45,004 nt of DNA from an uncultured Rikenella sp. (GCA_964519065.1 CAZFIF010000002.1:1-45004), one strand, 5' to 3'. Positions 3,397 to 45,004 are shown, counted from the first letter of the stretch. Numbers and translations are program-made. Notes: generated from the sequence alone by a model not told the origin.

Positions 3397-5346
3397 TTAG
3401 TGCATTGACCATGTAAATTCCTTGGGCCGTGTCATCGTCTCGGTATATGCATTCCCGAAACGGTCCGTGACCGTTATCTCCAGTGTCGAGGTAGCCGAAG
3501 AGGCCCTCACCAGGAACATGTGTGAGGTGTTGCCAGTCACAAACGAGCTTGTAGGTACAGCGCCTGCGTTCAGCCGCTTGGCTTCATAGGAGATGATATG
3601 CAGCGGATCCTTTGCCGTTATCCTCTCCACCGACAGCGGTGTGCCGCCCTCAGTCACCTCTACAGTCCACTGCGGGTCATACCCCCAGATGTTTATCATA
3701 ACGTCATTCACCTGGTTGGGACTGGCATACACCCCGGCGTACTCCGCAAGGGCCGCATCGGTAGAGTTGGGCGCGAAAGCAGCTGCTGTTATGTAGACAG
3801 TATTGAGGTCATAGCTCCTGAACTGGTAGTCCTGAGGGTAACCGATGCTCTTGTAATGCCATCTGATATCACGGTCCTGGACCTCCCATACACCGTATCC
3901 TCCCGGACTGCCGTCCTTGCATATCTGGTTGCCGGCATAGCCGGTCTTGCCGGTCCACCACCAGGTGGCACATACTGCGGCAGTGTTGTGCTCCGTCACG
4001 CCGCCTGAATCAACGGTATAGTTGATATGAGTGTGGCCGGTCACAACGTGGACCTCACTGAAGTCGTCAACAATTGAGAGAAGCGTGCTGCCGTTGTTGA
4101 GAACGATATTGCTCACCGGGTTTCCGCCTGCGTCAAGCGACGGGTTTCCGTAGAGCGGCGTATGCATGAAGATCACTACCGGAGTGCTCTTGTCGGTTAT
4201 GGCTGCCAGGTCTCTGGTAAGCCAGCCGGTCTGGGCAGAGGAGACCACATCGTAGTAATTGCGTTCTCCCACCACCCCCTGTGAGGCTCCCGTGTTGATG
4301 TACTGCACATTGTCAAGAACCACGTAATGGACGCTCCCGAGGTTAAATGAGTAATATGTCGGGCCTATCAACTCCCGGTAGGGAGCCTCCGCCTCAATGT
4401 CGCCGGTGATGTATGGATCATTGTCATGATTACCCATTACGTTGAACATGCGGCAGTTGATCTTTTTCATCTCGGCCAGGTATTGCGGGATGGAAAAATT
4501 GTTCGCATACCAGTAGAGATCCCAGGTCATGTCTCCCAGCGGTACCCCGTACACTTTGGTGCCTGAGGAGGTGTAGCCGGCGATGGTGGCATTCACATCA
4601 GGAAGAAATCCGGTGCTGAACTGCGTCAGGTCATCGTTGCGGTTTGCCAGATGCCAGTCGGCCATGGGTAAGACAACATGCTTGCTGTTGTCGGATTGTA
4701 CCAGGGAGAAGTCATGCTGTTCAACGCCGCTACCCCCGGCCACTCTTTTGAAGAACGGCGGTATGTTGTCACTGGTGGCAACCTCGTAGTTGCCGGGGAT
4801 GGATATGAATACGTACTTGTTCTGCTTGGCCGAGGGGAGGTAATAGATCCCGTCGCCGTCAGTGACGGTGACCTCGTAGCCGTCTGATACCACCACACCC
4901 GGAACACCCTCGCCGTCACAGAATACGATACCCTTTAACGTCATTCCGGGCCTGTCAGGTATGATGGTGCCGGTGATGACATTCAGAGTCAGGGTGCCGA
5001 TGACCATGCTCTCCGTACCTCGTCTGACCGTCAGCCGGTATGAGCCGGAGGAGAGGCCTGCCGGAAGAGTGATGGTAGCCGTCTGGGGGGTGACGGAAGT
5101 GACAGTGGCGCTCCAGCTGCTGCCTGCATCTGAGGTCAGCACAAACTCAATGATGTCATTCAGTGCAAATCCCTGGCCGGTGATGATGATCTCACCTCCC
5201 GGAGCCACATCGAGGGATGAGGGGATGGAAATGCCGGTGATCTTAAGTCCTTCTTCCTCCTCAGGCGGCGGGTCTTTCCTGCATGCGGTGCATGCGGCCA
5301 TCAGCGTCACCAGGAGAATAAGAAATATCTTTCCGTGGTATGTCAT
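3397..5346 (-). CDS. Lipoprotein with an IPT/TIG-like Ig domain plus a calcineurin-like metallophosphoesterase (MetallophosN/Metallophos/MetallophosC architecture)
   Basis: 649 aa. Lipobox LMAAC. Ig-like segment LKITGISIPSSLDVAPGGEIIITGQGF. Metallophosphoesterase motifs in order: ADWHL (DxH), LGDMTWD (GD), GNHDND (GNHD/E), FMHTPL (H), GHTHIN (GHxH). Confidence 0.85.
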   Translation of the reverse strand: MTYHGKIFLILLVTLMAACTACRKDPPPEEEEGLKITGISIPSSLDVAPGGEIIITGQGFALNDIIEFVLTSDAGSSWSATVTSVTPQTATITLPAGLSSGSYRLTVRRGTESMVIGTLTLNVITGTIIPDRPGMTLKGIVFCDGEGVPGVVVSDGYEVTVTDGDGIYYLPSAKQNKYVFISIPGNYEVATSDNIPPFFKRVAGGSGVEQHDFSLVQSDNSKHVVLPMADWHLANRNDDLTQFSTGFLPDVNATIAGYTSSGTKVYGVPLGDMTWDLYWYANNFSIPQYLAEMKKINCRMFNVMGNHDNDPYITGDIEAEAPYRELIGPTYYSFNLGSVHYVVLDNVQYINTGASQGVVGERNYYDVVSSAQTGWLTRDLAAITDKSTPVVIFMHTPLYGNPSLDAGGNPVSNIVLNNGSTLLSIVDDFSEVHVVTGHTHINYTVDSGGVTEHNTAAVCATWWWTGKTGYAGNQICKDGSPGGYGVWEVQDRDIRWHYKSIGYPQDYQFRSYDLNTVYITAAAFAPNSTDAALAEYAGVYASPNQVNDVMINIWGYDPQWTVEVTEGGTPLSVERITAKDPLHIISYEAKRLNAGAVPTSSFVTGNTSHMFLVRASSATSTLEITVTDRFGNAYTETMTRPKEFTWSMH

Positions 5347-5359
5347 TCAGTGGTAGCGT

Positions 5360-6541
5360 TTACTCGTTATAGCCAAGATCGGTGAGTATCTCCTGCGGTG
5401 TGGCCTCTGTCCCGTATTCCCGCACTTTGCGCTCATGGTAGAAAGCGACCGTGAGATCTGTCCTGTTGGTGATCATACCGTCAGCCAGGGGAGTGGCTTT
5501 TTTGCCCTGGCCGGGGCCGAAATATTTCTCCATCTGCTCAACGGTATTTATAGAATAGATGTTAGCCTTCAGTCCTGCCGCATGTATCTTACCGGCGAAA
5601 GCAGGTGAGAGGCCGTCATTCTTGTCGCTGAGGTTGGTGCCTATAAATTGTGCGCCGCACTCCCTGGCAAAGGCGATGATCTCATCGGTGACCTCCTCCT
5701 TTGCAAATTCGTCTGTTTTGGGATTGCTCACCAGGAAGCTGGCAAGCACCTTTTCGCCAAAGACCCTTTTGATGTTCATCATTCCCTCACGCGAGAAGCT
5801 TTGAAGGAGTATCTTGCCACGTGTGTTTCCCACGTTGACCCTGTCTCCGGACCAGAAGGGCACATCGGCGCTGATCTCTTCTCCCTCCAGCGGGTTCCAG
5901 CCCATGCGCGTCAGCTCATCATATATCTGCTCCTCGATGCCGGGATACTGTTCGGAGATCTTCACCTCGATATAGATGCCGGGCCTGTGGCCGTTGTCTG
6001 CCGGATCAGGCTCATATTCAAAGTGATATATGCCGGACTCGTCCCTGCTTACCATGCGGTTGCCCTCTTCGTCACGCTTAATCTTCTTCCCTTCTGCTAT
6101 GCGGAACACATCTTCAAAGACCAGAACATCGAGGCCGTTGAAGCCCTGACGCGCCTGTCCGGGGTTTTTCACGTTGAAGGCGCTGCCGGCATCGAGCTGC
6201 ATGATCTCTTCCCAGGTGAAGCTGCTGAGGGGATCACCCTCCCTGCCGGGAAACTTCTCTGCGACGTCGGTTGTGCGTTTGAAACTCTTGTCATGCATTA
6301 CCACCAGGAGACTGTCTTTCGTCCTGTGGACATCCAGTTCCATGTAGTCGGCACCGCTGTTGCGCGCCCAGCGAAAGGCCGCCTCGGTAAGTTCAGGTGC
6401 CCAGTAGATTGTTCCCCGGTGAGCAATGACAGCGTTGTCAGGCATATAGCTCTGTACCGTCATGTCACCCGTCACTTTTTTCTGTCCGCACCCGGCCATC
6501 AGTGCCGTGATAAGCATCAGTAGTAATAATTGTCTCTTCAT
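5360..6541 (-). CDS. Glycerophosphodiester phosphodiesterase (GDPD family, GlpQ/UgpQ-like) lipoprotein
   Basis: GDPD catalytic signature IAHRG...YMELDVHRTKDSLLVVMHD. Lipobox LMAGC. The track ORF begins at a GTG (6550). The ATG at 6541 (MKRQLLLL...) gives a canonical signal peptide and is preferred. Confidence 0.88.
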   Translation of the reverse strand: MKRQLLLLMLITALMAGCGQKKVTGDMTVQSYMPDNAVIAHRGTIYWAPELTEAAFRWARNSGADYMELDVHRTKDSLLVVMHDKSFKRTTDVAEKFPGREGDPLSSFTWEEIMQLDAGSAFNVKNPGQARQGFNGLDVLVFEDVFRIAEGKKIKRDEEGNRMVSRDESGIYHFEYEPDPADNGHRPGIYIEVKISEQYPGIEEQIYDELTRMGWNPLEGEEISADVPFWSGDRVNVGNTRGKILLQSFSREGMMNIKRVFGEKVLASFLVSNPKTDEFAKEEVTDEIIAFARECGAQFIGTNLSDKNDGLSPAFAGKIHAAGLKANIYSINTVEQMEKYFGPGQGKKATPLADGMITNRTDLTVAFYHERKVREYGTEATPQEILTDLGYNE

Positions 6542-33100: not shown

Positions 33101-34515
33101 CCAGGCTCGAGGCGGGAAGTATGAAGCTGCGGGTCTCTGCAGGGCAGTTACCGGAGTTTGTCAGGTCAATAGCCGGATCGTTTGCCTCACTGGCGGAAGC
33201 AAGAGAGATTGATTTCACCGTTACTGCAGAGGAGTTGGACACCGACTGTTGGTATGACGCTGACAAGATAGAAAAGATACTCAGCAACCTTCTCTCCAAT
33301 GCCTTTAAGTTCACCCCCGATGGAGGGTCAGTAACCGTGGACCTGATGGAAGACACCCCGCAAAGGGAGGGGGCATCCAGGGTGACGATACTGAAAGTCA
33401 GCGATACCGGACGGGGAATAGCAAGGGATCATCTCGACCGCATCTTCGACCGATTCTTCCAGGTTGACAGCAGTGATGTAAGAGACAGGGAAGGAACGGG
33501 CATCGGCCTCGCCCTGACCCGTGAGCTTGTGAATCTTATGCACGGAGAGATAACAGTGGAGAGCGAACCTGGCAGGGGAACAGCATTTACTGTAAAATTC
33601 CCTATTGACAGAGATAGCTTCAGCGAAGAGGAGGTGGCTGTGGCCGGAATGGCACCCGGTGATTCTGACCGAAGGATAGCGGCGGAGGAAGAACAGGAAG
33701 CGATCGAAGCCGTGAAGGATGAGGAGGAGGCAGCCACCCTGGAGACGGGCATTAAGGCCAAGGATGAAAGCGAGGTGATCCTGGTGGTGGAAGACAATGC
33801 CGACCTGCGTCATTACATCAGGAGCCTGCTTGCCGAAAATTACCTTGTTGAGGAGGCAGTAAACGGGGGTGCCGGCCTGGAGAAGGCCATTGAGATCATC
33901 CCTGACCTGGTTATTTCCGATATCATGATGCCGGTGATGGACGGCATGGAGATGTGCAAAAAGCTGAAGGCCCATCCTGCCACCAGCCACATCCCTGTGA
34001 TCATGCTTACTGCCAGGGCCGACAGGGAGAGTATGATAGAAGGAATCGACGCGGCAGCCGATGATTATATAGTCAAGCCCTTTGATTCTGAAATCATGAA
34101 GGCCAGGGTAAGAAACCTGATCACTCAGAGGCGGGAGCTGCGCAGGAGCTTTGAGAAACAGTTCCTGCTGGAGGCAGATCAGCAGGAGCCCGCCTCACCG
34201 ATGTTCCAGATGCTGCGAGAGATTACGAAGGTCTTTGACAGGCACCTTTCTGAACCGGACTTCAATGTTGAAATGCTCGGCAAGGAACTGAATATGAGCC
34301 GTTCACAGCTGTTCAGGAAGGTCCATGCCATAACCGGCAACACACCCATGGAGCTCCTCCGTCTGGTACGCATGAAGCATGCCGCCCGGCTGCTGAGGTC
34401 AGGCACTATGAATATTTCCCAGGTTACCTATGCCATCGGTCTGCAGAACACCTCACATTTTGCATCGGCCTTCCGTAAATATTTCGGGGTAAGCCCATCG
34501 GATTACGGAAAATAG
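30139..34515 (+). CDS. Hybrid two-component system protein (HTCS): periplasmic propeller/Y_Y_Y sensor, HisKA, HATPase, receiver, AraC HTH
   Basis: 1458 aa. Reg_prop repeats (FIWVGTDNGLNRFDG, ILWIGTSDGLFRF, DLWIGALTGLYRYD, YLWLSTMNGLSRFD). TM segment WWAYAIYFLILAGILLWY. H-box FFTNISHEFRTPLTL. G-boxes VSDTGRGI and GTGIGLAL. Receiver ILVVEDNADLR...SDIMMPVMDG...LTAR. AraC tail LQNTSHFASAFRKYFGVSPSDY. Alternative start at M15 (30181). Confidence 0.93.
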   Translation: MLICPALNLNRGVQMHDKWVHNVICRIGLALLCLPAWALIFSLPVRAQPAGWDITYFSTEDGLSSNHVNCVTKDSRGFIWVGTDNGLNRFDGYTFTTLRLPSGALHPLSTLKVLTVMEDSDSILWIGTSDGLFRFNPVNPLSDIRQYRYLEKPEAHTYRVFQPVWEICEDKNGLFWLICMDPDEGIPGDIRTFDRVTGAFECIFPDSSFTLEEDEAVMRSFATQIFSDSRGDLWIGALTGLYRYDFETGTFERFVPFQESPKPYISWIIRIYEDRFGNFWTSNIYGISQFDRESHTFGKHMPLEVKQTWREGFHSVVYSFGEDSNGYLWMRVNQSLLRLMHQPEGFPDPGNIESYETDFTVVEINPEFSFFLESPWLAWLGVPDRGLCRVTVRRNEFRSIKPTSLNVSGINDRDMVHSLFIGTDDRIWISNDGADNVANYDIANDRLNLYRIFPGESVDDIETDQNGDLWFASRYGNIARATVAGKEDISFTFYHPDLKNPAAITPRHEIYAQRKGEASTHMWEHLLYRERNGTLWFNSGRGIHDRYDRDTGGFIHLDHRTAGYINNDTCPEPEVAGEIWFPSSEGLLRLLPPFTRSDPHTLIPEATIVYRNAPDDDSSLSSDWVRTFHFSKYYEPGTMWIATIRGGLNRMVTTPVEGSGRHEVHFRNYTTADGLCDNNVLGIIEDRRGYLWLSTMNGLSRFDPRTEQFHSFHRKDGLPTNNFGWADPAINSSGELFFPTEAGVLWFHPDSIRINSDVPPVFITGFRINNDPVYPGEKSPLQKEITETQSVELTYKQNFLSFEFAALNFENPERNHYRYLLEGFERDWTYSESRRYVEYRNLKPGSYTFRVQGSNNSGVWNEEGASLAIIIRNPPWQTWWAYAIYFLILAGILLWYRRFLMNREQLKAAVEVERAEKEKIRAIDAFRSRFFTNISHEFRTPLTLVAGPLEDSLKTDRETVPVGKNVLQSMLRNTRRLQRLINQLLDISRLEAGSMKLRVSAGQLPEFVRSIAGSFASLAEAREIDFTVTAEELDTDCWYDADKIEKILSNLLSNAFKFTPDGGSVTVDLMEDTPQREGASRVTILKVSDTGRGIARDHLDRIFDRFFQVDSSDVRDREGTGIGLALTRELVNLMHGEITVESEPGRGTAFTVKFPIDRDSFSEEEVAVAGMAPGDSDRRIAAEEEQEAIEAVKDEEEAATLETGIKAKDESEVILVVEDNADLRHYIRSLLAENYLVEEAVNGGAGLEKAIEIIPDLVISDIMMPVMDGMEMCKKLKAHPATSHIPVIMLTARADRESMIEGIDAAADDYIVKPFDSEIMKARVRNLITQRRELRRSFEKQFLLEADQQEPASPMFQMLREITKVFDRHLSEPDFNVEMLGKELNMSRSQLFRKVHAITGNTPMELLRLVRMKHAARLLRSGTMNISQVTYAIGLQNTSHFASAFRKYFGVSPSDYGK

Positions 34516-34785
34516 GGCAGGTTACAAATCACCGGATGCTGTTCTTGTTGTAATGCGAGGGTAGTGAGCGATAATGGAAAAATCAGCAAGTAGCTGGAAG
34601 ATGAGTGCAAAAGAGTTGAATGCAAATGAATTATCGAAGGAGCATCGTTAACGATTTTAAGGCCATAGCAAAACCAGGGGCTGCCATTGTACTTCCGGGA
34701 CGAGGATGTAAGCTACCTGCTTACTGGCCATCTGGTATGGGGTGTTTAGATGAGAAGACTTTCAGGCAGGCTCTTTGACGGAACG

Positions 34786-36141
34786 CTAATTTAGAATAAT
34801 CGTAAAAGTAGTTGACTTTTCCTTCATTGAGTTCAGCAAAACATCGCCATTCATTTTAAGCATTATTTGCTTGCTAAGGCTAAGTCCAACGCCAGAGCCG
34901 TCATCCTTTGTTGTGAAAAACGGGACAAATATCTGCTCTCTTATTTCAGGAGGTACATGCGGACCATTATTGGTGATCTCAATTCTGGTGGTATTGTTCG
35001 ATTGACTGAGCATGATTATGATCTTTGGATTTTCTGTCTTATGAAAAATAAGGGCTTCGCATGCATTCTTCAAAAGGTTAATGATGACCTGCGACAGGAG
35101 TTTTTCGTCAGTAATAGCCATCGAGTCTTCGGGGATCGATTTTTCCAGTTTTATGGTGTCAAATTTCGAAAATGTACCGGCTGCCACCAGGCTATTCTCA
35201 ATCAGGTCTGACAAGTTAACAGGTGCCAGTTTGGGTACAGGAAGCTTTGTAAATTTCCGATAATTATCGACAAAATGCATTAAACCAAGGCTTCGCTCCT
35301 CAATAACCTTAAGCCCTTTCAGTGTGTTTTGAATTGTTTTGGAATCCAGATCTGCAGGGTCAATGGTTTTCCTGTTGTTAATAAAGTAATTTGAAATAAC
35401 CTGAGATAATGTGGTGATGGGAGCAATATTATTCATAATCTCGTGCGACAAAGTCCGCGCCAGTTTAATCCATGCATCTACTTTACCATTATCAAGCTCT
35501 TTGGTTATATCGCTAACAGCAACCAGCCTGATTATTTCTTTTGAAGTATTGATTTCTGAAAGTTTGAATAATAGCTTTTGTCCATATTGATTTTCAAAAA
35601 TGGCTGATTGTTCATGAGGCTTATGATCTTGATTCATTATAAAATCCGGCAAAACATGATCAATGGCTTTGAGTCCGTTTACATGATGATATTCCTCTAA
35701 ATTTGTGAGCTTTAGCGCTGCGGGATTAATATTTATGACTCTTCCATATTCATTGACTGAAAAAAGCCCTGTAGCCGATTGATCAATGACAGAACGATAA
35801 TACTGTTCCTGGATGCCGATATCTATTTTTGATTGCTTGAAAAGGTTGTTAAACCTTTCTATTCCAGTGTAGACTTCATCGATAGCATTATTGCCTGATT
35901 TGCCCGGGACTTTTATTGAAGTGTCTTCATTTTCAATACCTGATAAGAAAAAGGCCATCCATTGGTTTATCTTGTTGAAATACCTGATAATATTAATAAT
36001 GGCTCCTATCAGTAATAGCAATGTCAACAGCGATAAAGCATAAGCCTGCTTTTCAAAGAATAAAAACGCACCTGCCATCGAAAGCAGAATTGTTATTACC
36101 AATCTTGCTGTAATTGCAAAATAGAAATGCTTATATCCCAT
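34786..36141 (-). CDS. Sensor histidine kinase (NtrB-like) with 2 TM helices, a minimal external loop, PAS, HisKA and HATPase
   Basis: 451 aa. TM1 about residues 8-29 and TM2 about 35-55, separated only by EKQAY. PAS-like SVIDQSATGLFSVNEYGRVININPAA. H-box LARTLSHEIMNNIAPI. G-boxes NLLKNACEA and DDGSGVGLSLS. The start overlaps the upstream regulator stop by 11 nt. Confidence 0.88.
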   Translation of the reverse strand: MGYKHFYFAITARLVITILLSMAGAFLFFEKQAYALSLLTLLLLIGAIINIIRYFNKINQWMAFFLSGIENEDTSIKVPGKSGNNAIDEVYTGIERFNNLFKQSKIDIGIQEQYYRSVIDQSATGLFSVNEYGRVININPAALKLTNLEEYHHVNGLKAIDHVLPDFIMNQDHKPHEQSAIFENQYGQKLLFKLSEINTSKEIIRLVAVSDITKELDNGKVDAWIKLARTLSHEIMNNIAPITTLSQVISNYFINNRKTIDPADLDSKTIQNTLKGLKVIEERSLGLMHFVDNYRKFTKLPVPKLAPVNLSDLIENSLVAAGTFSKFDTIKLEKSIPEDSMAITDEKLLSQVIINLLKNACEALIFHKTENPKIIIMLSQSNNTTRIEITNNGPHVPPEIREQIFVPFFTTKDDGSGVGLSLSKQIMLKMNGDVLLNSMKEKSTTFTIILN

Positions 36142-37495
36142 ACCTCTTAAGCTTTTTGTATATGGTTTGCCGCGTTATTCCAAGATTTTTTGCCACGGCA
36201 CTCATATTGCCTTTTTCCTTATGGATAGAGGCGAGTATCATCTCTCTTTCCATCTCTTCAATGGTTTTGCCGTGAAGCTCTTGCTGCAGATTTATACTGG
36301 TATCAGTTAACAGAAAGCTATTTTCATTTAATACTTTATCGTCAGCAAGAATTACGGCCTTTTCAATTGTGTGTTGCAGTTCCCTTACATTTCCGGGCCA
36401 TTTGTATTTCAGGAGCTTTTCTATTCCGTCCTGATTAATTTTCAGTCCCTGTTTATCGTATTTATTCGCGTATTTAATAAGAAAAAACTCAGCTAACAGC
36501 GCGATATCATTTCCGCGATTTCTTAATGGAGGTAGTTCAATTGTAATGGTGTTGATGCGATAAAGCAAATCCTCGCGGAATAGTCCATCGGCAATCATTG
36601 CATTTAAATCCTTGTTGGTGGCCGATATCAATCGGATATCGATCGGGATTTGAGTATTACTCCCTAACTTGATAATGGTCCTGTTTTGTAGGGTAGTGAG
36701 CATTTTTGCCTGGAGAGATAAGGAGAGGTTTCCAATTTCGTCCAGAAAAAGGGTGCCCTTGTCAGCGGCTTCAAATTTGCCGATCCTCTCCTCTTTTGCA
36801 TCGGTAAAAGAGCCTTTCGTATGACCAAAAAGTTCACTTTCGAATAGAGTGTTGCTTATGGCTCCCATATCAACACAAAGCATAATCTCCTGATTTCGTT
36901 TGGAATAACGGTGTATTTCACGGGCAATCAGCTCTTTTCCTGTACCGTTTTCTCCGGTGATAAGAATATTGGCATCGGTATTGGCTACTTTTTTCACCAT
37001 TTCCATAACCTGCTTCATTGGCTCTGATTGCCCGATAAGAATTTGCGATGATGGCTTAAGTTCTTGTTTTAACGTATTTGTAGTTTTTAATAAGGAAGCG
37101 TTTTCTATTTTGCTATATCTAAGCTTCAGAGAAGCATGTATTGTGCTAATTAGTTTATTGTTATCCCAGGGTTTTAAAATAAAATCGAAGGCGCCTTCTT
37201 TCACTGCTTTTACAGCCAGCTCAATATCGCCATAGGCAGTAATCATAATTATACTAATAGTCGGGTCATATTTTTGAATCTGCCTTAACCAGTAAATTCC
37301 CTCGTTACCATTGTTAATTCCGGCCTTGAAATTCATGTCAAGCAACACAACATCAATGGCATGTTGCTGGATGGTAGAAATCAGATTGTTGGGATTTTTG
37401 AGCGTGAATATCTGGTCAAATTCCGATTGCAGCAACATCTCAAGTGCAGTTAATACACTTTTATTATCATCGAGAATAAGAATCTTACTTTTCAT
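36131..37495 (-). CDS. Sigma-54-dependent response regulator (NtrC family: receiver, AAA+, Fis HTH)
   Basis: 454 aa. Receiver ILILDDN...VLLDMNF. Walker A GENGTGKE. Sigma-54 contact loop GSFTDA (GAFTGA variant). Walker B LFLDEI. R-finger region. C-terminal HTH AKNLGITRQTIYKKLKRYGI. Confidence 0.93.
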   Translation of the reverse strand: MKSKILILDDNKSVLTALEMLLQSEFDQIFTLKNPNNLISTIQQHAIDVVLLDMNFKAGINNGNEGIYWLRQIQKYDPTISIIMITAYGDIELAVKAVKEGAFDFILKPWDNNKLISTIHASLKLRYSKIENASLLKTTNTLKQELKPSSQILIGQSEPMKQVMEMVKKVANTDANILITGENGTGKELIAREIHRYSKRNQEIMLCVDMGAISNTLFESELFGHTKGSFTDAKEERIGKFEAADKGTLFLDEIGNLSLSLQAKMLTTLQNRTIIKLGSNTQIPIDIRLISATNKDLNAMIADGLFREDLLYRINTITIELPPLRNRGNDIALLAEFFLIKYANKYDKQGLKINQDGIEKLLKYKWPGNVRELQHTIEKAVILADDKVLNENSFLLTDTSINLQQELHGKTIEEMEREMILASIHKEKGNMSAVAKNLGITRQTIYKKLKRYGI

Positions 37496-37570
37496 TTTCT
37501 ATACTAAGGTTCGTAAAACAAGGTCTTATTTGCCTGATTTAACGAGTTGTTTGATGTAAAAGTAAAGAGA

Positions 37571-37609
37571 TGTAAACTAAATGTACATCGACTGTAAGAT
37601 ATGTTTACA
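37571..37609. promoter_or_regulatory. Candidate enhancer (UAS) for the sigma-54 activator: nested inverted repeats rich in TGTA
   Basis: TGTAAAC (37571-37577) and its exact inverse GTTTACA (37603-37609) flank the perfect palindrome ATGTACAT (37581-37588) and TGTAAG (37593-37598). The centre is ~85 nt upstream of the candidate -24 element. Confidence 0.4.
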
Positions 37610-37673
37610 CATATTTTTCGTTGTTCCGTCAAAATAAGGTGTATATATCATATATTCAGTCATATAACTTTAA

Positions 37674-37689
37674 TGGCATAAACCTTGAT
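37674..37689 (+). promoter_or_regulatory. Candidate sigma-54 (-24/-12) promoter
   Basis: TGGCAT-aaacc-TTGAT compared with the consensus TGGCAC-N5-TTGCW. The GG-N10 spacing is correct. There are two mismatches, including GC->GA at -12. It lies ~45 nt upstream of the small ORF ATG and points at the transporter genes. Confidence 0.42.
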
Positions 37690-37731
37690 TAATGAAAATA
37701 ATGAAGAACAATCAAACTTACTCAAATCCGG

Positions 37732-37872
37732 ATGCTGATGAATAATATTTTAATCATCCTGTTCATATTAATGACATTTAGCCAAAATGCCCGTTCACAA
37801 CAAACACCTATAGATGAAAAACTGAGAGGAATATTTAAGATTGACTCAACAAAATTAAAAACTGAAATCTAA
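37732..37872 (+). CDS. Unannotated 46-codon ORF encoding a signal-peptide-like small protein
   Basis: Hand translation: MLMNNILIILFILMTFSQNARSQQTPIDEKLRGIFKIDSTKLKTEI*. It has a hydrophobic h-region and a QNA-RS cleavage-like site. Its TAA stop (37870-37872) shares a base with the ATG of the permease (TAATG). It is below the 60-aa cut-off of the ORF track. Confidence 0.4.
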   Translation: MLMNNILIILFILMTFSQNARSQQTPIDEKLRGIFKIDSTKLKTEI

Positions 37873-40211
37873 TGACTATGCTATTCTACAATCTCCGGAT
37901 TGTTCTTAAGGATATTTCACGCTTCAGAAGCCATAATGTAATAAGTATAACCGGTTTGGCTATTAGCTTGGCCTGCTTGTTCGTAATGGGGGCATGGGCT
38001 ATTCAGGAGCTGCAATATGATAGATTCCACAAAGATTCGGAGTTGATTTTTATGGTAACGACTCAGATGAGTTCTGAAAATGGAACTAGTGTGACAATAG
38101 CAGAGACTCCAACGGCATTAGCCAGCGAACTCAAGAATAGAATTCCTTCCGTTGAAGAGAGTTTTAATTTCCTATACTTATATGGGAAAAGAGTCTTACA
38201 GGTTGGTGACAGATTTTATGAGGAAACCGGTGTTGCCGCAAACCCCACTATGTTGGATGTTTTTAATTTCCCGCTGGTAAATGGGTTAATTGATTATCTG
38301 GACGATCCCGATTGTATTTTTATAACAGAAAAACTTGGTAAAAAGCTATTCGCTGATGAAAGCCCGCTAGGGAAAGTTATTAAATATAATAATGCACAAC
38401 TTTTAACTGTAAGAGGTATTCTGAAAGATATTCCCGAGAATTCAAGTTTAAAATTTGATTTTATTATTCCGAAGCAGATCGAGTCTGACAACAATGCAGT
38501 CTGGATGCCCCTTTCTACCAATACAATTATTAAAGTTGCCCCAAAAACCAACATAACTGATTTAAAAAAAGCTGCAAGTGCCATCTGGAGAGAGAATATT
38601 GAATATGAGCAATTAAACATTGACTTACTGCCAATAACAAAACTAAGATATGGCGCTGATTTTGATGTTTTTAACGCTAAACATGGTAATTATCTGAAGC
38701 TCTATTCATTTATTGGGATTGCTTTATTGATATTGATATTGGCTTCTCTGAATTATATCAACTTGATGTCTGCCTATCTGATTAAGAGAACAGATGAAGT
38801 TGCTATCCGCAAAATCAATGGTGCCAGTTCGAAAAATATCTTGAATTATTTTCTCCTGGAATCAGTCGTCAATTCACTTATTGCCAGTGTATTGGCGATT
38901 ATTTTATCTGCTGTATTCATTCGACTGTTTCAATCAATGCTGGACGCCACTATTGCTTCAAAATATTTGATAATCAGCACAATTTCTGGCAGCATTGGTG
39001 CCTTGATTATAATAGGAATAATATCGGGTATATATCCGGCTATGATTACCAGTTCGTTTTCACCTCTCTTAAAATCAAACTCTGACAAGTCATTGACAAA
39101 TAAGGCCGGATTAAGAACTGCTTTAGTAATCAGCCAGTTTATATTATCAATTACCCTTACTATAGTTAGTTTGATAATAATCAGGCAAACCAACTATTTA
39201 AATAATTTTAAACTTGGGTATAATTCTGAAAATATTGTTGAGATATTTTTGCCGACGGAAGGGGCAAATAATTTTACAACGATAGAAAGCAATCTTCTGT
39301 CAAATCCCAATATCAGGCAAGTTTCTTTCGCACGTAATTCACCGGTGGATGTTAGCCCGTTCTTTATTACAGACAATTGGAAATGGGAAGGATCAGCCGA
39401 TGAAACCGCAGCCTCAATTTACGTTTTATCAGTTGATCACTCTTACTTGAACATATTTCAAATGCCACTTCTCAGGGGCAGGAATTTTTCAGCTTCGGAT
39501 AATGATAAGGACAAAGTGATAATTAATGAAACCCTGTCTCATTTACTGGGCTTCAGCGATCCGATAGGCAGAGTAATGTACCGGGGTGATAATACATTTG
39601 AAATTATAGGGGTCGTTAAAGATTTTCATTTTCAAAACCTTTCAAACAGTATTCAACCGCAGTTATTCAGATATAGTGCATCACAAAACAGGATGTTTGT
39701 GGAATTAGGCCAAAATATTGAACAGGGTATAACTGCTATAAAAGATCAATTTGACCAGTTTTATAACCTGCCTTTCAGTTATAGTTTCATTGATCACCAG
39801 ATCAAGGGGCTGTATGCAGCTGAAAGTAAAATTTCACTGGGGATTATAGTATTTACGATTTTAACCATAATACTGTCCTGCATTGGATTGATTGGACTGA
39901 TTACCTTTAATTTAGAGTTAAGAGTAAAGGAGATAGGTATTAGAAAAATATGCGGTTCAAACATTTCTGAAGTTCTTCTTCTTCTCAACAGAGATATTAT
40001 AAAATGGTTCCTGGTGGGATTTATTATCAGTTGCATGTTATCGTGGTATTCTATGACTAAATGGCTCGAGCATTTCTCATTTAAAACTTCTTTGGAATGG
40101 TGGATATTTCTAAGCGGAGGTTTCATTATATTTCTTGTTACCGCTCTTACTACTACCGGGTTAACCTGGAAAGCAGCAAGGCAAAACCCTGTTGAGTCAT
40201 TGAATAAATAA
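37872..40211 (+). CDS. Tandem-FtsX (MacB-like, type VII ABC) permease with two extracytoplasmic domains
   Basis: 779 aa. N-terminal TM, ~220-aa external domain and FtsX 3-TM bundle (EVAIRKINGASSKNIL), then the same arrangement repeated (EIGIRKICGSNISEVL). C-terminal ARQNPVESL. Confidence 0.9.
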   Translation: MTMLFYNLRIVLKDISRFRSHNVISITGLAISLACLFVMGAWAIQELQYDRFHKDSELIFMVTTQMSSENGTSVTIAETPTALASELKNRIPSVEESFNFLYLYGKRVLQVGDRFYEETGVAANPTMLDVFNFPLVNGLIDYLDDPDCIFITEKLGKKLFADESPLGKVIKYNNAQLLTVRGILKDIPENSSLKFDFIIPKQIESDNNAVWMPLSTNTIIKVAPKTNITDLKKAASAIWRENIEYEQLNIDLLPITKLRYGADFDVFNAKHGNYLKLYSFIGIALLILILASLNYINLMSAYLIKRTDEVAIRKINGASSKNILNYFLLESVVNSLIASVLAIILSAVFIRLFQSMLDATIASKYLIISTISGSIGALIIIGIISGIYPAMITSSFSPLLKSNSDKSLTNKAGLRTALVISQFILSITLTIVSLIIIRQTNYLNNFKLGYNSENIVEIFLPTEGANNFTTIESNLLSNPNIRQVSFARNSPVDVSPFFITDNWKWEGSADETAASIYVLSVDHSYLNIFQMPLLRGRNFSASDNDKDKVIINETLSHLLGFSDPIGRVMYRGDNTFEIIGVVKDFHFQNLSNSIQPQLFRYSASQNRMFVELGQNIEQGITAIKDQFDQFYNLPFSYSFIDHQIKGLYAAESKISLGIIVFTILTIILSCIGLIGLITFNLELRVKEIGIRKICGSNISEVLLLLNRDIIKWFLVGFIISCMLSWYSMTKWLEHFSFKTSLEWWIFLSGGFIIFLVTALTTTGLTWKAARQNPVESLNK

Positions 40212-40348
40212 TTCATTGCTAACCTGGGTTATAGGTCAAATACCAGTTCATAAGTAAATAGATAATAGATTAGTACTTATTGTGATTCTTCTATTTCAAT
40301 CGCACAATTACAAACCCTCAGGCACTATAACCATAAAAATCAACATGC

Positions 40349-41023
40349 ATGATAAAAACAGAAAAATTAACAAAAGTATATAGCACCGAGGATGTTGAAA
40401 CCTGTGCTTTGAGAGGTGTGGATATTCATGTCAGGAAAGGTGAATTTGTGGCCATCATGGGTCCTTCCGGTTGCGGTAAATCAACCTTGCTGAATATAGT
40501 TGGTTTGTTGGATAATGCCACAAGCGGGAATTATAGTTTCAACGGAACCGATGTTAGTAATCTTAAGGAGGAAGATCGCACACAGTACAGAAGAGGGAAT
40601 TTTGGTTTTGTGTTTCAAAGTTTCAACCTGATTGACAAGCTAAATGTATATGACAACGTAGAGCTTCCCTTGCTCTATCTTAAAATGAAAGGCTCGGAGC
40701 GTAAAAAAAGAGTCAATGAGGTTTTGAACAGAATGAAAATCGGCCATAGGGCCAGACACTATCCACAACAACTTTCGGGCGGACAACAACAACGAGTAGC
40801 AATTTCAAGAGCCGTTGTAGCAAACCCCGTTATAATTCTGGCAGATGAACCAACCGGAAATCTGGATACAAAAAATGGCATAGAAGTAATGAATCTTTTA
40901 TCGGAACTCAACCAGGAAGGCACCACTATTTTAATGGTGACACACTCTGCGCGTGATGCTGGTTTTGCTCACCGCACTATTAAATTACTGGATGGTCAGG
41001 TAATCAGGGAGAATCGGAATTAA
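40349..41023 (+). CDS. ABC ATPase of the MacB/LolD/FtsE type
   Basis: 224 aa. Walker A GPSGCGKST, Q-loop FVFQSFNL, signature LSGGQQQRVAISRA, Walker B ILADEPTGNLD, H-loop MVTHS. Confidence 0.93.
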   Translation: MIKTEKLTKVYSTEDVETCALRGVDIHVRKGEFVAIMGPSGCGKSTLLNIVGLLDNATSGNYSFNGTDVSNLKEEDRTQYRRGNFGFVFQSFNLIDKLNVYDNVELPLLYLKMKGSERKKRVNEVLNRMKIGHRARHYPQQLSGGQQQRVAISRAVVANPVIILADEPTGNLDTKNGIEVMNLLSELNQEGTTILMVTHSARDAGFAHRTIKLLDGQVIRENRN

Positions 41024-41076
41024 ATTCAGATACCAGTGGATACATACCAGAAAAAGGCCAATAAAAACTGATTCCC

Positions 41077-43431
41077 ATGCTCAAGAATTATCTTAAAATC
41101 GCATATGCCAACCTCATTCAAAGCAGGGTGTATTCATTGATAAGTATATCCAGTCTTTCTATCGGACTGGCTGTCTGTATACTGTTGCTACTGTATGTTG
41201 CGCACGAACTCAGTTATGACAGATATCACGAAAAGTCAGATAATATCTATCGGTTGTGTCAGGAGGTACATCCCTATCAGGCACCGGGGACAGCAAAATA
41301 TCTGGCAGATAATTTACCGGAAATAAAGAGCTTTGCAAGAATATTGCCAAGAGATAATATCCTGGTTAAAGTAGATAATCAGATATTTAAGGAAGATATG
41401 GTGGCCTGGGTCGATGCTGATCTCTTTGAAGTATTTTCTTTTGAATTTATACAGGGAAGCGCTGCAAATTCTCTTCAGCAACCGGGTACGGCAGTTCTAA
41501 CTGAAGAGACAGCTCGTAAATATTTTGGGGACGAAAATCCCATCGGCAAAATATTTAAAGTAAGTAGCGAATACGATTATACTGTGGTGGGAGTAATAAA
41601 AGATATACCTCAGAATTCCCATTTTACCTTTGACCTCTTTTTGACGCTCGCTGATGGGAATAGGATGTTCAGTGAAAACTGGATGGACAACTGGGGTTGG
41701 TGGAATTTCCTGGTTTATTTCGAAATGTCAGATCTTTTTTCCAGGCCAGACCTGGAGGCTAAAATCACAGAGTTGATGAAAAGCTATAATGTAACTGACG
41801 CTCCTGTAACCCAATTTACTGTGCAAAACATCAAGGATATTCATCTCTATTCTTCTCATTTCCTGGGCGATATTCAACCCCAGAACAGCATTACCTATGT
41901 ATTGATTTTTTCGGCAATAGGCCTGCTTATTCTGCTGATAGCCTGCTTCAATTATATCAATCTTTTAACAGCCAATGCAACAACCCGTGTAACTGAAATT
42001 GGTGTCCGTAAGACTTTTGGAGCTTCACGAACTCAGCTGGCAATGCAATATGTCTCTGAATCGATGATTGTATTCTTTATATCATTTTGTATTTCGTTGA
42101 TTCTGGTAAGGCTCAGCTTACCCCTGTTTAATGAGCTATCCGGAAAGGAATTATCATTTTACTTCCTGTCGAATGTGAATATTCTTATAAGTTTATTAGG
42201 TATGATGATAGTTTTGGGTGTCCTGGCAGGTTGGTATCCCGCTTTTGTGTTGTCTTCCTATAGTCCCGTTAAGGTGATGAAATCATCCAAAAGCGGTTTT
42301 GGTTCCGGCTTTCAAATCCGGAAAATTCTGGTGGGAGCTCAGTTTACCATTGTCATCGTCTTAATTGCCTGTGCTACTGTTATGCTTCGTCAGATTAGTT
42401 TTCTACAAAAGAAAGATCTGGGTTTTGATAAAGAAGCTGTACTTACCAGCATATTCGATTTTGGTGATGAAGCGAAATACAATAGCCTGAAACAGGCACT
42501 GCTAAGTGAGAGCTTTGTTTCCGCTGTTTCTGTCGCAAGCCGCATACCTTCAGGTTCTCTGAGTAATGAGGGGAGAGTGAGACTGGAAGGTCAGGCCGAT
42601 GGTATAGCAATTTCCTATGTGCATGTTACTTTCGATTATTTTGAAACATTGGGAATTGAGCCGGTTCAGGGTCGATTATTCTCGAATGAATTTAATACGG
42701 ATGCCACTGATGCAGTGATATTAAATGAGGCTGCCGTAAAAAGTATAGGCATAGAGGGAGATCCAATAGGGCAAACACTCAAATGTAATTGGCCTAAATC
42801 GGATAGAAAAATAGTAGGCATAATCGACGACATTTATTTCGAGTCATTGTATAGCAAGGTGAAGCCCGTAGTCTACGTAATAGATTATTCAATGGCTTAC
42901 CATCTAATCGTTAAAGTGAAGCCTTCTGATTTAGCTGGCTCGAAGAATGCCATTACCGAAGTTTGTCAGAGCATCTATCCCGATGAGGTCATTGAATTTA
43001 CTTTTTTAGACCAGATCCTGGAACAACGCTATGAAAAAGACAGTAAGACTTTTCAACTTATGGGCTTTTTCGCAGTGCTGGCTATTTTTCTTGCCTGTAT
43101 GGGTCTATTAGGTGTGGCCTCCTTTATGATGGCCAGCCGAACCAAAGAAATAGGCATTCGAAAAGTAAACGGAGCAACAATTCCTGAAATCATGCAAATG
43201 CTGAATATAAGCTTTGTGAAATGGATGGTTATAGCCTTTATAGTAGCAACGCCAGTAGCATATTATGGTATGAACAAATGGCTGGAAAGCTTTGCCTATA
43301 AGACGGTACTCAGTTGGTGGATATTTGCTTTCGCAGGATTTATTTCCCTGGTCATTGTATTGCTTACAGTAAGTGGCCTTAGCTATAGCACCGCACGAAG
43401 GAATCCGGTAGAGGCATTGAGATATGAGTAA
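41077..43431 (+). CDS. Second tandem-FtsX (MacB-like) permease, paralogous to 37872-40211
   Basis: 784 aa. MLKNYLKIAYANLIQSRVYSLISI N-terminus. Two FtsX modules (EIGVRKTFGASRTQL and EIGIRKVNGATIPEIM). C-terminal ARRNPVEALRYE. Confidence 0.9.
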   Translation: MLKNYLKIAYANLIQSRVYSLISISSLSIGLAVCILLLLYVAHELSYDRYHEKSDNIYRLCQEVHPYQAPGTAKYLADNLPEIKSFARILPRDNILVKVDNQIFKEDMVAWVDADLFEVFSFEFIQGSAANSLQQPGTAVLTEETARKYFGDENPIGKIFKVSSEYDYTVVGVIKDIPQNSHFTFDLFLTLADGNRMFSENWMDNWGWWNFLVYFEMSDLFSRPDLEAKITELMKSYNVTDAPVTQFTVQNIKDIHLYSSHFLGDIQPQNSITYVLIFSAIGLLILLIACFNYINLLTANATTRVTEIGVRKTFGASRTQLAMQYVSESMIVFFISFCISLILVRLSLPLFNELSGKELSFYFLSNVNILISLLGMMIVLGVLAGWYPAFVLSSYSPVKVMKSSKSGFGSGFQIRKILVGAQFTIVIVLIACATVMLRQISFLQKKDLGFDKEAVLTSIFDFGDEAKYNSLKQALLSESFVSAVSVASRIPSGSLSNEGRVRLEGQADGIAISYVHVTFDYFETLGIEPVQGRLFSNEFNTDATDAVILNEAAVKSIGIEGDPIGQTLKCNWPKSDRKIVGIIDDIYFESLYSKVKPVVYVIDYSMAYHLIVKVKPSDLAGSKNAITEVCQSIYPDEVIEFTFLDQILEQRYEKDSKTFQLMGFFAVLAIFLACMGLLGVASFMMASRTKEIGIRKVNGATIPEIMQMLNISFVKWMVIAFIVATPVAYYGMNKWLESFAYKTVLSWWIFAFAGFISLVIVLLTVSGLSYSTARRNPVEALRYE

Positions 43432-43481
43432 GGCAATAGAAATGATTTAAGAAATAAAGGTATAATGCTAAATAGTCTATT

Positions 43482-44972
43482 ATGAAAAGGAGTTTGAAAA
43501 TTCAAACAACAAAATTCGTGTTATTGTTTGCGGCAATTGGTTTTATTACCCTGAGCTGTACCGCCGAAAAAGAACGCACAAGCTATTCCGCGGGTTTTAG
43601 TTGCTATAAAGTACAGGATAGCAGTCGGCTTTATATACGCAATCAGGATACTGTTCTGCGCCCGATGCTGATTTATTTCTGGTATCCGTCAGAAGATGTT
43701 TCGGATGGGAATAAAATGAGTTTCAGGCAATATGTCGACTTGATTTCCATCCGGGAAGATTACTCTAAAGCGAAAGAGGATATCGATAACGAGAGCTTTT
43801 ATTTTATCGATGCCTATGCCGGTTTTGCCAAAGGGAGCTTCAACATAGGATTAAACACAACTACAGAAGAAATCCTCGATTCACCAGTGGAAGCTTCCCT
43901 CAATATTCCGCAGGCAAAGGGGGAATTTCCTTTGATTATATACGCACCCTCAAACAGCAAGACGCCGGTACAAAATCATCGTCTCTGCGAACAACTGGCA
44001 AAAAATGGCTTCTATGTTATTTCGGTTGCTTCCGCCGGAGAAAATTCTATACAAAGGAGAGATCCGGGGAAAAGCATATTAGCACAGGTGGAGGATATGG
44101 AATTCATTCTCGATTATATAGAGAAAACCGTCCCTGTTAGATATTCATCAATAGGCCTGTTCGGATATAGTACGGGAGGCCTGGCAGCAGCCCTGTTTCA
44201 AATGAAACATCCAGATGTTAAAGCCGTTTGCTCCCTGGATGGCAGTCAGGAATATTCCTTCTACATCTTCCTTTCCAAATTACAGGCGTTTGATTTGGAG
44301 AAAACCCAAGTACCTTATTTCATGCTGGTCAATAAAGATGTCAGTTCTGTATATCCATTTTATAATTCAATAAAATCCAGGGATAAACTCGCTGTGCGAA
44401 TGTCAAACCTGGATCATTTTGGTTTCGTCTCTTTTTGGAGCTATTTTAACAATTGCAAACCGGATTCAATCCAGAATAATTATGCCAGGAGCTATGATTT
44501 TATTGCTGACTATGCCACAACCTTTTTTGATGCCACGCTGAAAGAAAATCAGAAGTCAAAAGAAGAATTATTGAGCCTGAGTTCACAGAAAAATGATTTT
44601 TCGATACCGGATCAATTGGATTTTGCACAATCAACGGCATTGCTGAATACGTATCTGCAATCCTCTATTGATACGGCAATTGCCATTTACAAATCACATA
44701 AAGCGGAAGCTTATAACAACTATAATTATAGAGAAGAAGAGATTAGTATGGCCGGCAGAATGCTTGTGGATTATGATGTTAATGCATCTGTGAAGCTGTT
44801 CAAATTCAATATAGAAGAATATCCCGATTCGTGGCACGCCTATTATGATTTAGGTTTTGCCCATAAAATAAGCGGGGAGATGGATCAGGCAAAAGAAGCT
44901 TTGCTGAAAGCACAACAAATGAATCCTGAAAATATGGATATTTCACAAATGCTTTCGGAACTGTCAAATTAG
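43482..44972 (+). CDS. Lipoprotein with an alpha/beta-hydrolase (dienelactone hydrolase / PAF-acetylhydrolase-like) domain and C-terminal TPR repeats
   Basis: 496 aa. Lipobox ITLSC. Nucleophile elbow FGYSTGG (GxSxG). Candidate LDG and LDHFGF for the Asp and His. C-terminal TPR-like AYYDLGFAHKISGEMDQAKEALLKAQQMNPEN. Confidence 0.72.
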   Translation: MKRSLKIQTTKFVLLFAAIGFITLSCTAEKERTSYSAGFSCYKVQDSSRLYIRNQDTVLRPMLIYFWYPSEDVSDGNKMSFRQYVDLISIREDYSKAKEDIDNESFYFIDAYAGFAKGSFNIGLNTTTEEILDSPVEASLNIPQAKGEFPLIIYAPSNSKTPVQNHRLCEQLAKNGFYVISVASAGENSIQRRDPGKSILAQVEDMEFILDYIEKTVPVRYSSIGLFGYSTGGLAAALFQMKHPDVKAVCSLDGSQEYSFYIFLSKLQAFDLEKTQVPYFMLVNKDVSSVYPFYNSIKSRDKLAVRMSNLDHFGFVSFWSYFNNCKPDSIQNNYARSYDFIADYATTFFDATLKENQKSKEELLSLSSQKNDFSIPDQLDFAQSTALLNTYLQSSIDTAIAIYKSHKAEAYNNYNYREEEISMAGRMLVDYDVNASVKLFKFNIEEYPDSWHAYYDLGFAHKISGEMDQAKEALLKAQQMNPENMDISQMLSELSN

Positions 44973-45004
44973 AAATCTACATATAATAAATTGCTAATCT
45001 TCAA

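Follow-up and report, generated by a model that had tools for sequence, protein, structure and literature searches.

We analysed a 45,004-nucleotide stretch of DNA from an uncultured Rikenella sp. (GCA_964519065.1 CAZFIF010000002.1:1-45004), referred to here as the window, which encodes a sensor histidine kinase and an NtrC-family sigma-54 activator divergently from the genes of a tandem-FtsX ABC transporter, and we conclude from its sequence and from that of related loci that these genes represent a two-component-regulated efflux module. It is highly probable that the circuit as a whole runs from the kinase to the activator, from there to a pair of palindromic sites and a sigma-54 promoter, and finally to the pump operon. 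The open reading frames (ORFs) between positions 34786 and 43431 lie exactly where the initial annotation had placed them, and the elements of the module are the following.

34786-36141, minus strand: sensor histidine kinase, 451 amino acids (ORF and translation, Pfam, hydropathy, AlphaFold2, alignment of 18 homologues)
36131-37495, minus strand: NtrC-family sigma-54 enhancer-binding response regulator (the activator), 454 amino acids (Pfam, NCBIfam)
37571-37587, no strand: putative upstream activator site 1, 17-bp palindrome TGTAAACTAAATGTACA (TGTAA-N7-TTACA scan)
37593-37609, no strand: putative upstream activator site 2, perfect 17-bp palindrome TGTAAGATATGTTTACA (same scan)
37674-37688, plus strand: sigma-54-type -24/-12 promoter TGGCATAAACCTTGA (TGGCAT-N5-TTGA), directed at the transporter operon
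37872-40211, plus strand: tandem-FtsX permease 1, 779 amino acids, eight transmembrane (TM) helices (Pfam, hydropathy)
40349-41023, plus strand: ABC ATPase, 224 amino acids, MacB/LolD/DarD-like (Pfam ABC_tran, NCBIfam, PDB matches)
41077-43431, plus strand: tandem-FtsX permease 2, 784 amino acids, eight TM helices (Pfam, NCBIfam, hydropathy)
43482-44972, plus strand: probable lipoprotein, 496 amino acids, with an alpha/beta-hydrolase domain and a C-terminal TPR region (weak Pfam matches; lipobox LSC in the translation)

The intergenic region between the activator gene and permease 1 comprises 376 nt (37496-37871) and contains two tandem palindromes of the form TGTAAA-N5-TTTACA, whose centres are 22 bp apart and located about 96 nt (site 1) and 75 nt (site 2) upstream of the GG of the -24 element. 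When up to one mismatch to TGTAA-N7-TTACA was allowed, these two sites were the only matches in the window, and none of the six other matches to GGCAY-N5-TTG is located near such a palindrome. The spacing of palindromes and promoter corresponds to the classical layout predicted for an NtrC-type enhancer with a -24/-12 promoter.

This arrangement recurs among the 68 non-redundant related loci with at least 300 nt of upstream sequence. A GG[CT]A[CT]-N5-TTG promoter pointing towards the transporter was found in 48 of them, in comparison to one locus with the reverse orientation and about one expected from shuffled sequences, and all 48 promoter-bearing loci harbor a palindrome 30-140 nt upstream of the promoter. 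At least two palindromes were present in 50 of the 68 loci (8.3 in shuffles). Since a conserved activator site and an oriented -24/-12 promoter precede the transporter operon, this operon is very likely to be the target of the activator, as the initial annotation had supposed. The consensus of the promoter family is tTA-N5-TTnYGGCAT-N5-TTGAA with invariant GG and TTG; the -12 element reads TTGA, TTGG or TTGC, and the canonical C is replaced by A in 29 of 47 sequences, which means that standard scans for TGGCAC-N5-TTGC would miss many promoters of this family. As a side observation, the TTGA-type element may reflect a sigma-54 preference specific to Bacteroidales.

The activator, whose gene overlaps the kinase gene by 11 nt, carries the Pfam domains Response_reg, Sigma54_activat (E 1e-66), AAA_lid_14 and HTH_8, a Fis-type helix-turn-helix (HTH), and its translation shows the receiver aspartate D53 and the AAA+ Walker A motif GENGTGKE, in agreement with the NtrC-family sigma-54 output proposed earlier. 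The loop predicted to contact sigma-54 reads GSFTDA instead of GAFTGA, with the F and the T kept. A G[SA]FTDA loop is the norm of the family (70 of the 80 activators scanned).

The kinase consists of a first TM helix (residues ~6-29), a turn of 4-5 residues (EKQA/Y), a second TM helix (~34-55), a linker, a PAS domain, a DHp domain and a catalytic domain. Hydropathy analysis revealed only two hydrophobic segments (residues 10-28 and 34-52), and the AlphaFold2 model, which was built on 18 homologues and is of modest quality (mean predicted local distance difference test score, pLDDT, of 65), places helices at residues 3-29 and 34-69 with a four-residue turn between them, the pLDDT of this hairpin being 82-85. 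The length of the loop between the two helices is invariant in the alignment of the 18 homologues. Both predictions agree with the proposal that the kinase has no extracytoplasmic sensing domain. Past the hairpin, the model comprises a helix-coil-helix linker (55-121), a PAS-like alpha/beta fold (125-211), a DHp hairpin (220-297) and the catalytic domain. The cytoplasmic PAS domain, likewise anticipated from the sequence, extends over residues ~114-211 and is indicated by this fold, by a borderline Pfam match at 114-165 (23.2 bits, cut-off 22.6) and by a core that is highly conserved in the alignment; H233 of the DHp domain lies within LSHEIMNN, and HATPase_c was matched at 345-450. A HAMP domain in the linker was considered and rejected because no Pfam match was obtained even at E ≤ 10, the designation HAMP-like resting only on the predicted helix-coil-helix and a DEVYxGIxxFNxLF motif. 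The kinase core is closest to the NCBIfam models AtoS and ZraS and to the structures of ThkA and ZraS; BceS was not among the PDB matches.

Each of the two permeases contains two MacB_PCD and two FtsX domains (Pfam) and eight hydrophobic segments, with the MacB_PCD domains located after TM1 and after TM5, which bears out their earlier description as 8-TM tandem-FtsX proteins. MacB is the nearest solved structure to permease 2. The ATPase is nearest to the NCBIfam models DarD, MacB and LolD and to the structures of the Streptococcus pneumoniae MacAB-like Spr0694 (5xu1), MJ0796, PsdA, MacB and BceA (the latter with E 7e-54). From the gene content we infer that one ATPase dimer could serve alternative tandem-FtsX permeases, each of which would amount to two MacB folds joined covalently into a pseudo-dimer. 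Of the permease families of the module, that of permease 2 is the most common (30 loci); permease 1 is lineage-specific, being present only in the window, in locus L001 and, as a fragment, in locus L006. The hydrolase gene begins 50 nt past permease 2 and is probably co-transcribed cargo of the pump operon; its hydrolase domain gave weak dienelactone-hydrolase, PETase and lipase matches. In about ten loci, homologues of this hydrolase-TPR protein (45-85% identical) are encoded no more than 10 kb from the kinase; in L013 and L044 they immediately follow the permease. They are sometimes found on the far side of the two-component genes.

More than 1800 close relatives of the kinase are present in the databases, with 65-93% identity among the matches listed. 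Scanning one genome per GTDB species yielded 80 loci, mostly from metagenome-assembled genomes labelled Bacteroidales or Bacteroidota, and in nearly all of them the activator is encoded directly upstream of the kinase. Among the 49 loci whose flank upstream of the activator reaches 4 kb or more, divergent transporter genes were found in 46, in 35 cases within 410 bp, and in one further locus the transporter genes follow the kinase, so that the pairing is kept in 47 of 49 loci. The association of kinase and activator with an FtsX/MacB-type transporter, which had been claimed for the window, is thus far above chance. When the N-terminal 220 residues of the kinase were compared with 1.84 billion representative sequences, 156 clusters were recovered at E ≤ 1e-10, nearly all of them of about 450 amino acids and colinear from residue 1. 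Two distant relatives (L088 and L089), which are only 22-31% identical, encode an OEP protein, an adaptor, an ABC ATPase and a tandem-FtsX permease divergently from an activator and a kinase, and both keep the palindromes; a matching -24/-12 element is present in L089, and in L088 the -12 element departs from TTG. Because the same layout is found in such distant relatives, the predicted kinase-activator-pump circuit is old, widespread and conserved across Bacteroidota rather than a peculiarity of the window.

The relatives also provide information on the architecture of the pump. A HlyD-family adaptor is encoded in about 40 related loci and a TolC/OEP protein in 16, where it is located between the activator and the pump; since these components are added in relatives, the ancestral unit is predicted to be a tripartite, MacAB-TolC-like pump, of which the window contains a reduced copy. 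In the window, tblastn gave no match to the HlyD adaptor, and no TolC/OEP channel was found there, although a channel gene may be located elsewhere in the genome. One to four permease genes accompany each ATPase gene, and grouping of the permeases at 45% identity gave at least 24 families, which are swapped while kinase, activator and ATPase are conserved. Conservation is highest for the ATPase (72-88% identical across the loci, mean p-distance 0.20) and lowest for the kinase (0.37). The pairwise distances, correlated without control for the species tree, gave r values of 0.86 for kinase and activator, 0.74 for kinase and P0 permease and 0.63 for kinase and ATPase, with an overall range of 0.54-0.74 between kinase and transporter and of 0.78-0.83 within the transporter.

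A MacAB-TolC-type tripartite pump, as represented by Escherichia coli MacB and S. pneumoniae Spr0693-0695, appears to be a better structural analogue of the module than the Bce system. The FtsX TM fold, the MacB periplasmic core domain and an ATPase of the MacB/LolD clade are shared, and the HlyD-family adaptor and OEP/TolC protein of the relatives complete the resemblance. The module differs from MacAB-TolC in having a covalent tandem permease with a separate ATPase instead of a homodimer with fused nucleotide-binding and transmembrane domains, one to four permease genes per ATPase, and sigma-54 rather than PhoPQ-type control, and the window copy lacks the adaptor and channel genes. The duplicated MacB_PCD-FtsX permease and the ATPase clade are also shared with ADOP and with DarB/DarD, which gave the best NCBIfam matches; however, neither a PadR regulator nor dar biosynthetic genes are located near the module. 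With regard to regulation, the module resembles ZraSR, AtoSC and NtrBC in its activator with receiver, AAA+ and HTH_8 domains and in the paired 17-bp palindromes ~75-100 nt upstream of a -24/-12 promoter. ZraSR is an envelope-stress system. In contrast to ZraS and AtoS, the kinase described here has no periplasmic domain, and the GSFTDA loop, the predominance of TTGA at -12 and an ABC pump as the target set the module apart from all three systems. Membership in any of the named families was rejected because every NCBIfam score remained below its curated cut-off (score/cut-off: AtoS 112/646, ZraR 341/760, PrsR 405/503 and PhoR 49/334; ADOP, TIGR03434, 314/622, DarB 137/700 and DarD 275/375), so that the module was assigned neither to ADOP or DarB/DarD nor to AtoS/AtoC, ZraS/ZraR, PhoR or PrsK/PrsR.

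The initial annotation had proposed a Bce-like logic, and this stands only in part. As in the BceRS-BceAB systems of Firmicutes, a kinase with two TM helices and a short linker is encoded beside an FtsX-fold ABC transporter that is induced by its two-component system, and the ATPases belong to the same MacB/BceA clade. The response regulator of Bce-type systems is an OmpR-family protein, whereas the one found here is NtrC-type, and a kinase of the intramembrane-sensing type, as reportedly defined by Mascher, has no cytoplasmic sensory domain, unlike the PAS-containing kinase of the module. Further differences are the diderm host, the relatives with an adaptor and a TolC-like protein, and permeases that are not co-conserved with the kinase. 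Moreover, the Bce permease has ten TM helices, and its single large extracytoplasmic domain is inserted between TM7 and TM8 (PMC11009047), in contrast to the eight TM helices and two periplasmic domains found here.

According to the mechanism that we propose, the kinase would phosphorylate the activator (H233 to D53), which would then bind the tandem palindromes at 37571-37609 and remodel sigma-54 RNA polymerase at the promoter 37674-37688, and this would drive expression of permease 1, the ATPase, permease 2 and the hydrolase (37872-44972). In relatives with a HlyD adaptor and a TolC-like channel, the pump would expel a periplasmic or outer-leaflet substrate. The kinase itself is presumably blind to the periplasm, and its own sensing, within the membrane or the cytoplasm, would rely on the TM hairpin, on the PAS domain and on the juxtamembrane linker, which is highly conserved. 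What is sensed may be generic, either a perturbation of the bilayer or envelope or an amphipathic compound at the inner leaflet or in the cytoplasm, and the role of the module could be an inducible defence against, or clearance of, toxic amphipathic compounds such as peptides, lipopeptides and detergent-like molecules. If the kinase takes its own signal inside the membrane or cytoplasm, the pump would therefore be an output and not an obligatory co-sensor. We favor this statement, autonomous sensing of a generic signal from the membrane or cytoplasm, the pump being the output, only tentatively, and taken as a whole it falls somewhat short of being probable. It is favored because the kinase has a sensory domain of its own and because the sensor module is conserved while permeases, adaptor and TolC-like protein vary from locus to locus. 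In addition, sigma-54 promoters are essentially silent without their activator, so that a flux sensor would find hardly any basal pump to read, and the distances of kinase and transporter, again without control for the species tree, correlate more weakly than those within the sub-modules.

Several points weigh against autonomous sensing or against parts of the proposed wiring. Characterised loop-less kinases (BceS, LiaS, PhoR) mostly rely on an accessory membrane or transport protein, which speaks for pump-coupled sensing. The kinase linker has no HAMP domain recognised by Pfam at E ≤ 10, the AlphaFold2 model is modest, and the -12 element is mostly TTGA and not the canonical TTGC. The gene for sigma-54, rpoN, was not found within the 45-kb window. 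Finally, the window copy may work differently from its relatives because the adaptor and TolC genes are missing from it.

The strict and ancient linkage of kinase and transporter could also mean that the kinase is bound to the ATPase-permease machine and monitors its activity, much as BceS does with BceAB or PhoR with PstSCAB/PhoU, which would result in a need-based induction; the conserved ATPase would then be the common contact for the interchangeable permeases. We consider such a flux or activity sensing rather unlikely, although it is a serious competitor of autonomous sensing. In its favor, the kinase has no extracytoplasmic domain, and a conserved kinase that faces diverse permeases calls for a substrate-independent signal; the ATPase is the most conserved part of the module. 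The Bce paradigm (PMC11009047) provides a precedent. The layout of PhoR, with a PAS domain behind two TM helices and a short loop, is the same as that of the kinase described here. However, a regulator and its target would be neighbours in any case, the swapping of permease families speaks against a tight co-evolution of kinase and permease as in Bce modules, the kinase shows no specific similarity to BceS among solved structures, the permease is not of the BceB type, and sigma-54 promoters would provide little basal pump to be sensed. In its most specific form, this explanation describes a diderm counterpart of Bce flux sensing, in which a loop-less PAS kinase reads the shared ATPase of an often TolC-linked pump with interchangeable permeases and converts its state into need-based sigma-54 transcription, a version that is slightly more doubtful still. 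The earlier claim that the transporter acts as the sensor in a Bce-like manner thus finds no support in the permease type, the PAS domain, the lack of a BceS match, the permease swapping or the weaker kinase-transporter correlations.

PhoR is a Gram-negative precedent for kinases that monitor an ABC transporter. Its domain order consists of two TM helices with a tiny periplasmic loop, a linker, a PAS domain and the kinase core. By analogy, PhoR with PstSCAB-PhoU is no less suitable a precedent than BceS, although Pst is an importer, the output of the Pho system is OmpR-type, and no PhoU-like gene is present here.

The high conservation of the PAS core would also be in line with a domain that, like those of FixL or ArcB, binds a single specific metabolite or redox cofactor of the cytoplasm, in which case the pump might export an endogenous product (an envelope lipid, a lipoprotein or a self-made peptide) and not a toxin. 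MacB relatives do export endogenous products, as illustrated by LolCDE and by the DarB/DarD models, which were the best or second-best NCBIfam matches. Nevertheless, this explanation is improbable: no biosynthetic genes recur beside the module, all scores of the Dar and Lol models remained far under their cut-offs, and the variable set of permeases argues for varied substrates.

The window copy of the module is located on a low-GC island (34516-45004) with a border at ~34.5-34.8 kb. The GC content drops from 0.53 to 0.38 exactly at the 3' end of the kinase gene, and the GC content at third codon positions is 0.36-0.41 in the module compared to 0.61 in the adjoining hybrid two-component gene. 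Because the GC content of the module is foreign here and in relatives is the same as that of their own flanks, these data suggest a horizontal acquisition from a low-GC member of the Bacteroidales. The sharp transition, together with the missing adaptor and TolC genes and a relic ORF in the leader, could also be taken to indicate an assembly chimera or a decaying, non-functional acquisition. This is very improbable, since the junction recurs in an independent contig (L001, 99.5% identical with 53 single nucleotide polymorphisms) and in the 92%-identical L006 and is therefore real and not a misassembly; moreover, all five genes of the module are intact with complete catalytic motifs, and the promoter and the activator sites are intact as well. 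No tRNA was found at the island border.

The relic ORF mentioned above is the remaining feature of the leader.

37732-37872, plus strand: 46-codon ORF with a signal-peptide-like start (MLMNNILIILFILMTFSQNA...), whose stop overlaps the ATG of permease 1 (TAATG)

In L001 and L006, the closest relatives, its frame is broken by in-frame stops. A gene for a secreted peptide was rejected on these grounds, and the ORF is probably a relic of a lost gene for an exported protein. The ORF occupies the position where relatives carry the TolC and adaptor genes. No known RNA family was found in the leader.

In the initial annotation, the module was thought not to have been described for this phylum, which holds in part. 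A link between sigma-54 and the COG0577 permeases had already been made in an in-silico survey from 2025, which reported that COG0577 FtsX permeases in Bacteroidia are preceded by sigma-54 promoters and called this the first such evidence (PMC12316311); the dedicated kinase-activator pair, the enhancer sites and the tripartite architecture are not part of that survey. A comparative paper on sigma-54 from 2011 makes no mention of the module, and our literature search found no experimental study of it. The tandem-FtsX (COG0577) permeases of Bacteroidota are very numerous and their functions unassigned, and one conserved subset is now tied to a defined circuit, the precise cis-elements of which make the induction signals and substrates of the pump directly testable. 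In addition, the module offers a clean test of transporter-coupled sensing in diderm bacteria; if flux sensing were true, no earlier case would exist outside Firmicutes, nor any with sigma-54 as the output. Should the module confer inducible tolerance to antimicrobial peptides, bile or detergents, this would bear on the competition and persistence of environmental and gut Bacteroidota.

Some further observations concern the island border and the variation among related loci. In L006, the kinase and the hybrid two-component gene are separated by an inserted HTH gene resembling HipB and a split HipA-like toxin gene (4651-6123, as read from the translations). The insertion lies at the same spot as the GC border of the window and suggests a hot spot for such events. 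The window itself shows a sub-threshold match to the Rfam model group-II-D1D4-2 at 34486-34601 on the plus strand (31.3 bits, gathering score 36, full model length), which covers the 3'-terminal 30 nt of the hybrid two-component gene and extends across the island border. The match could be a group II intron remnant or due to chance; neither a D5/D6 element nor an intron ORF was found near it.

The cargo located between promoter and pump varies among the loci. A PAP2 phosphatase related to enzymes of the BcrC/LpxE/LpxF type is encoded in L014 (7741-8454), with a counterpart ORF in L017 (outside the domain scan), and a patatin-like phospholipase in L073 (7559-8422), with an ORF of the same N-terminus in L071. 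The cargo of L002 (3047-8376) comprises beta-lactamase-family hydrolases and CMD, PD40 and DUF1080 proteins. This variable cargo, to which the hydrolase-TPR lipoprotein of the window can be added, hints at a regulon for envelope or xenobiotic defence. In L004 (9220-9594) and L005 (9298-9696), a small 23S_rRNA_IVP gene, encoding a four-helix bundle, splits the activator-kinase pair, the genes of which otherwise overlap. An extra kinase of ~1090 amino acids is encoded directly upstream of the activator and co-directionally with it in L067 (4831-8121) and L080 (5114-8389); in L067 it contains a periplasmic Reg_prop/Y_Y_Y sensor and no receiver domain according to Pfam, and the N-terminus of the L080 protein is similar. 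This extra kinase may provide a second, periplasm-facing input to the same activator.

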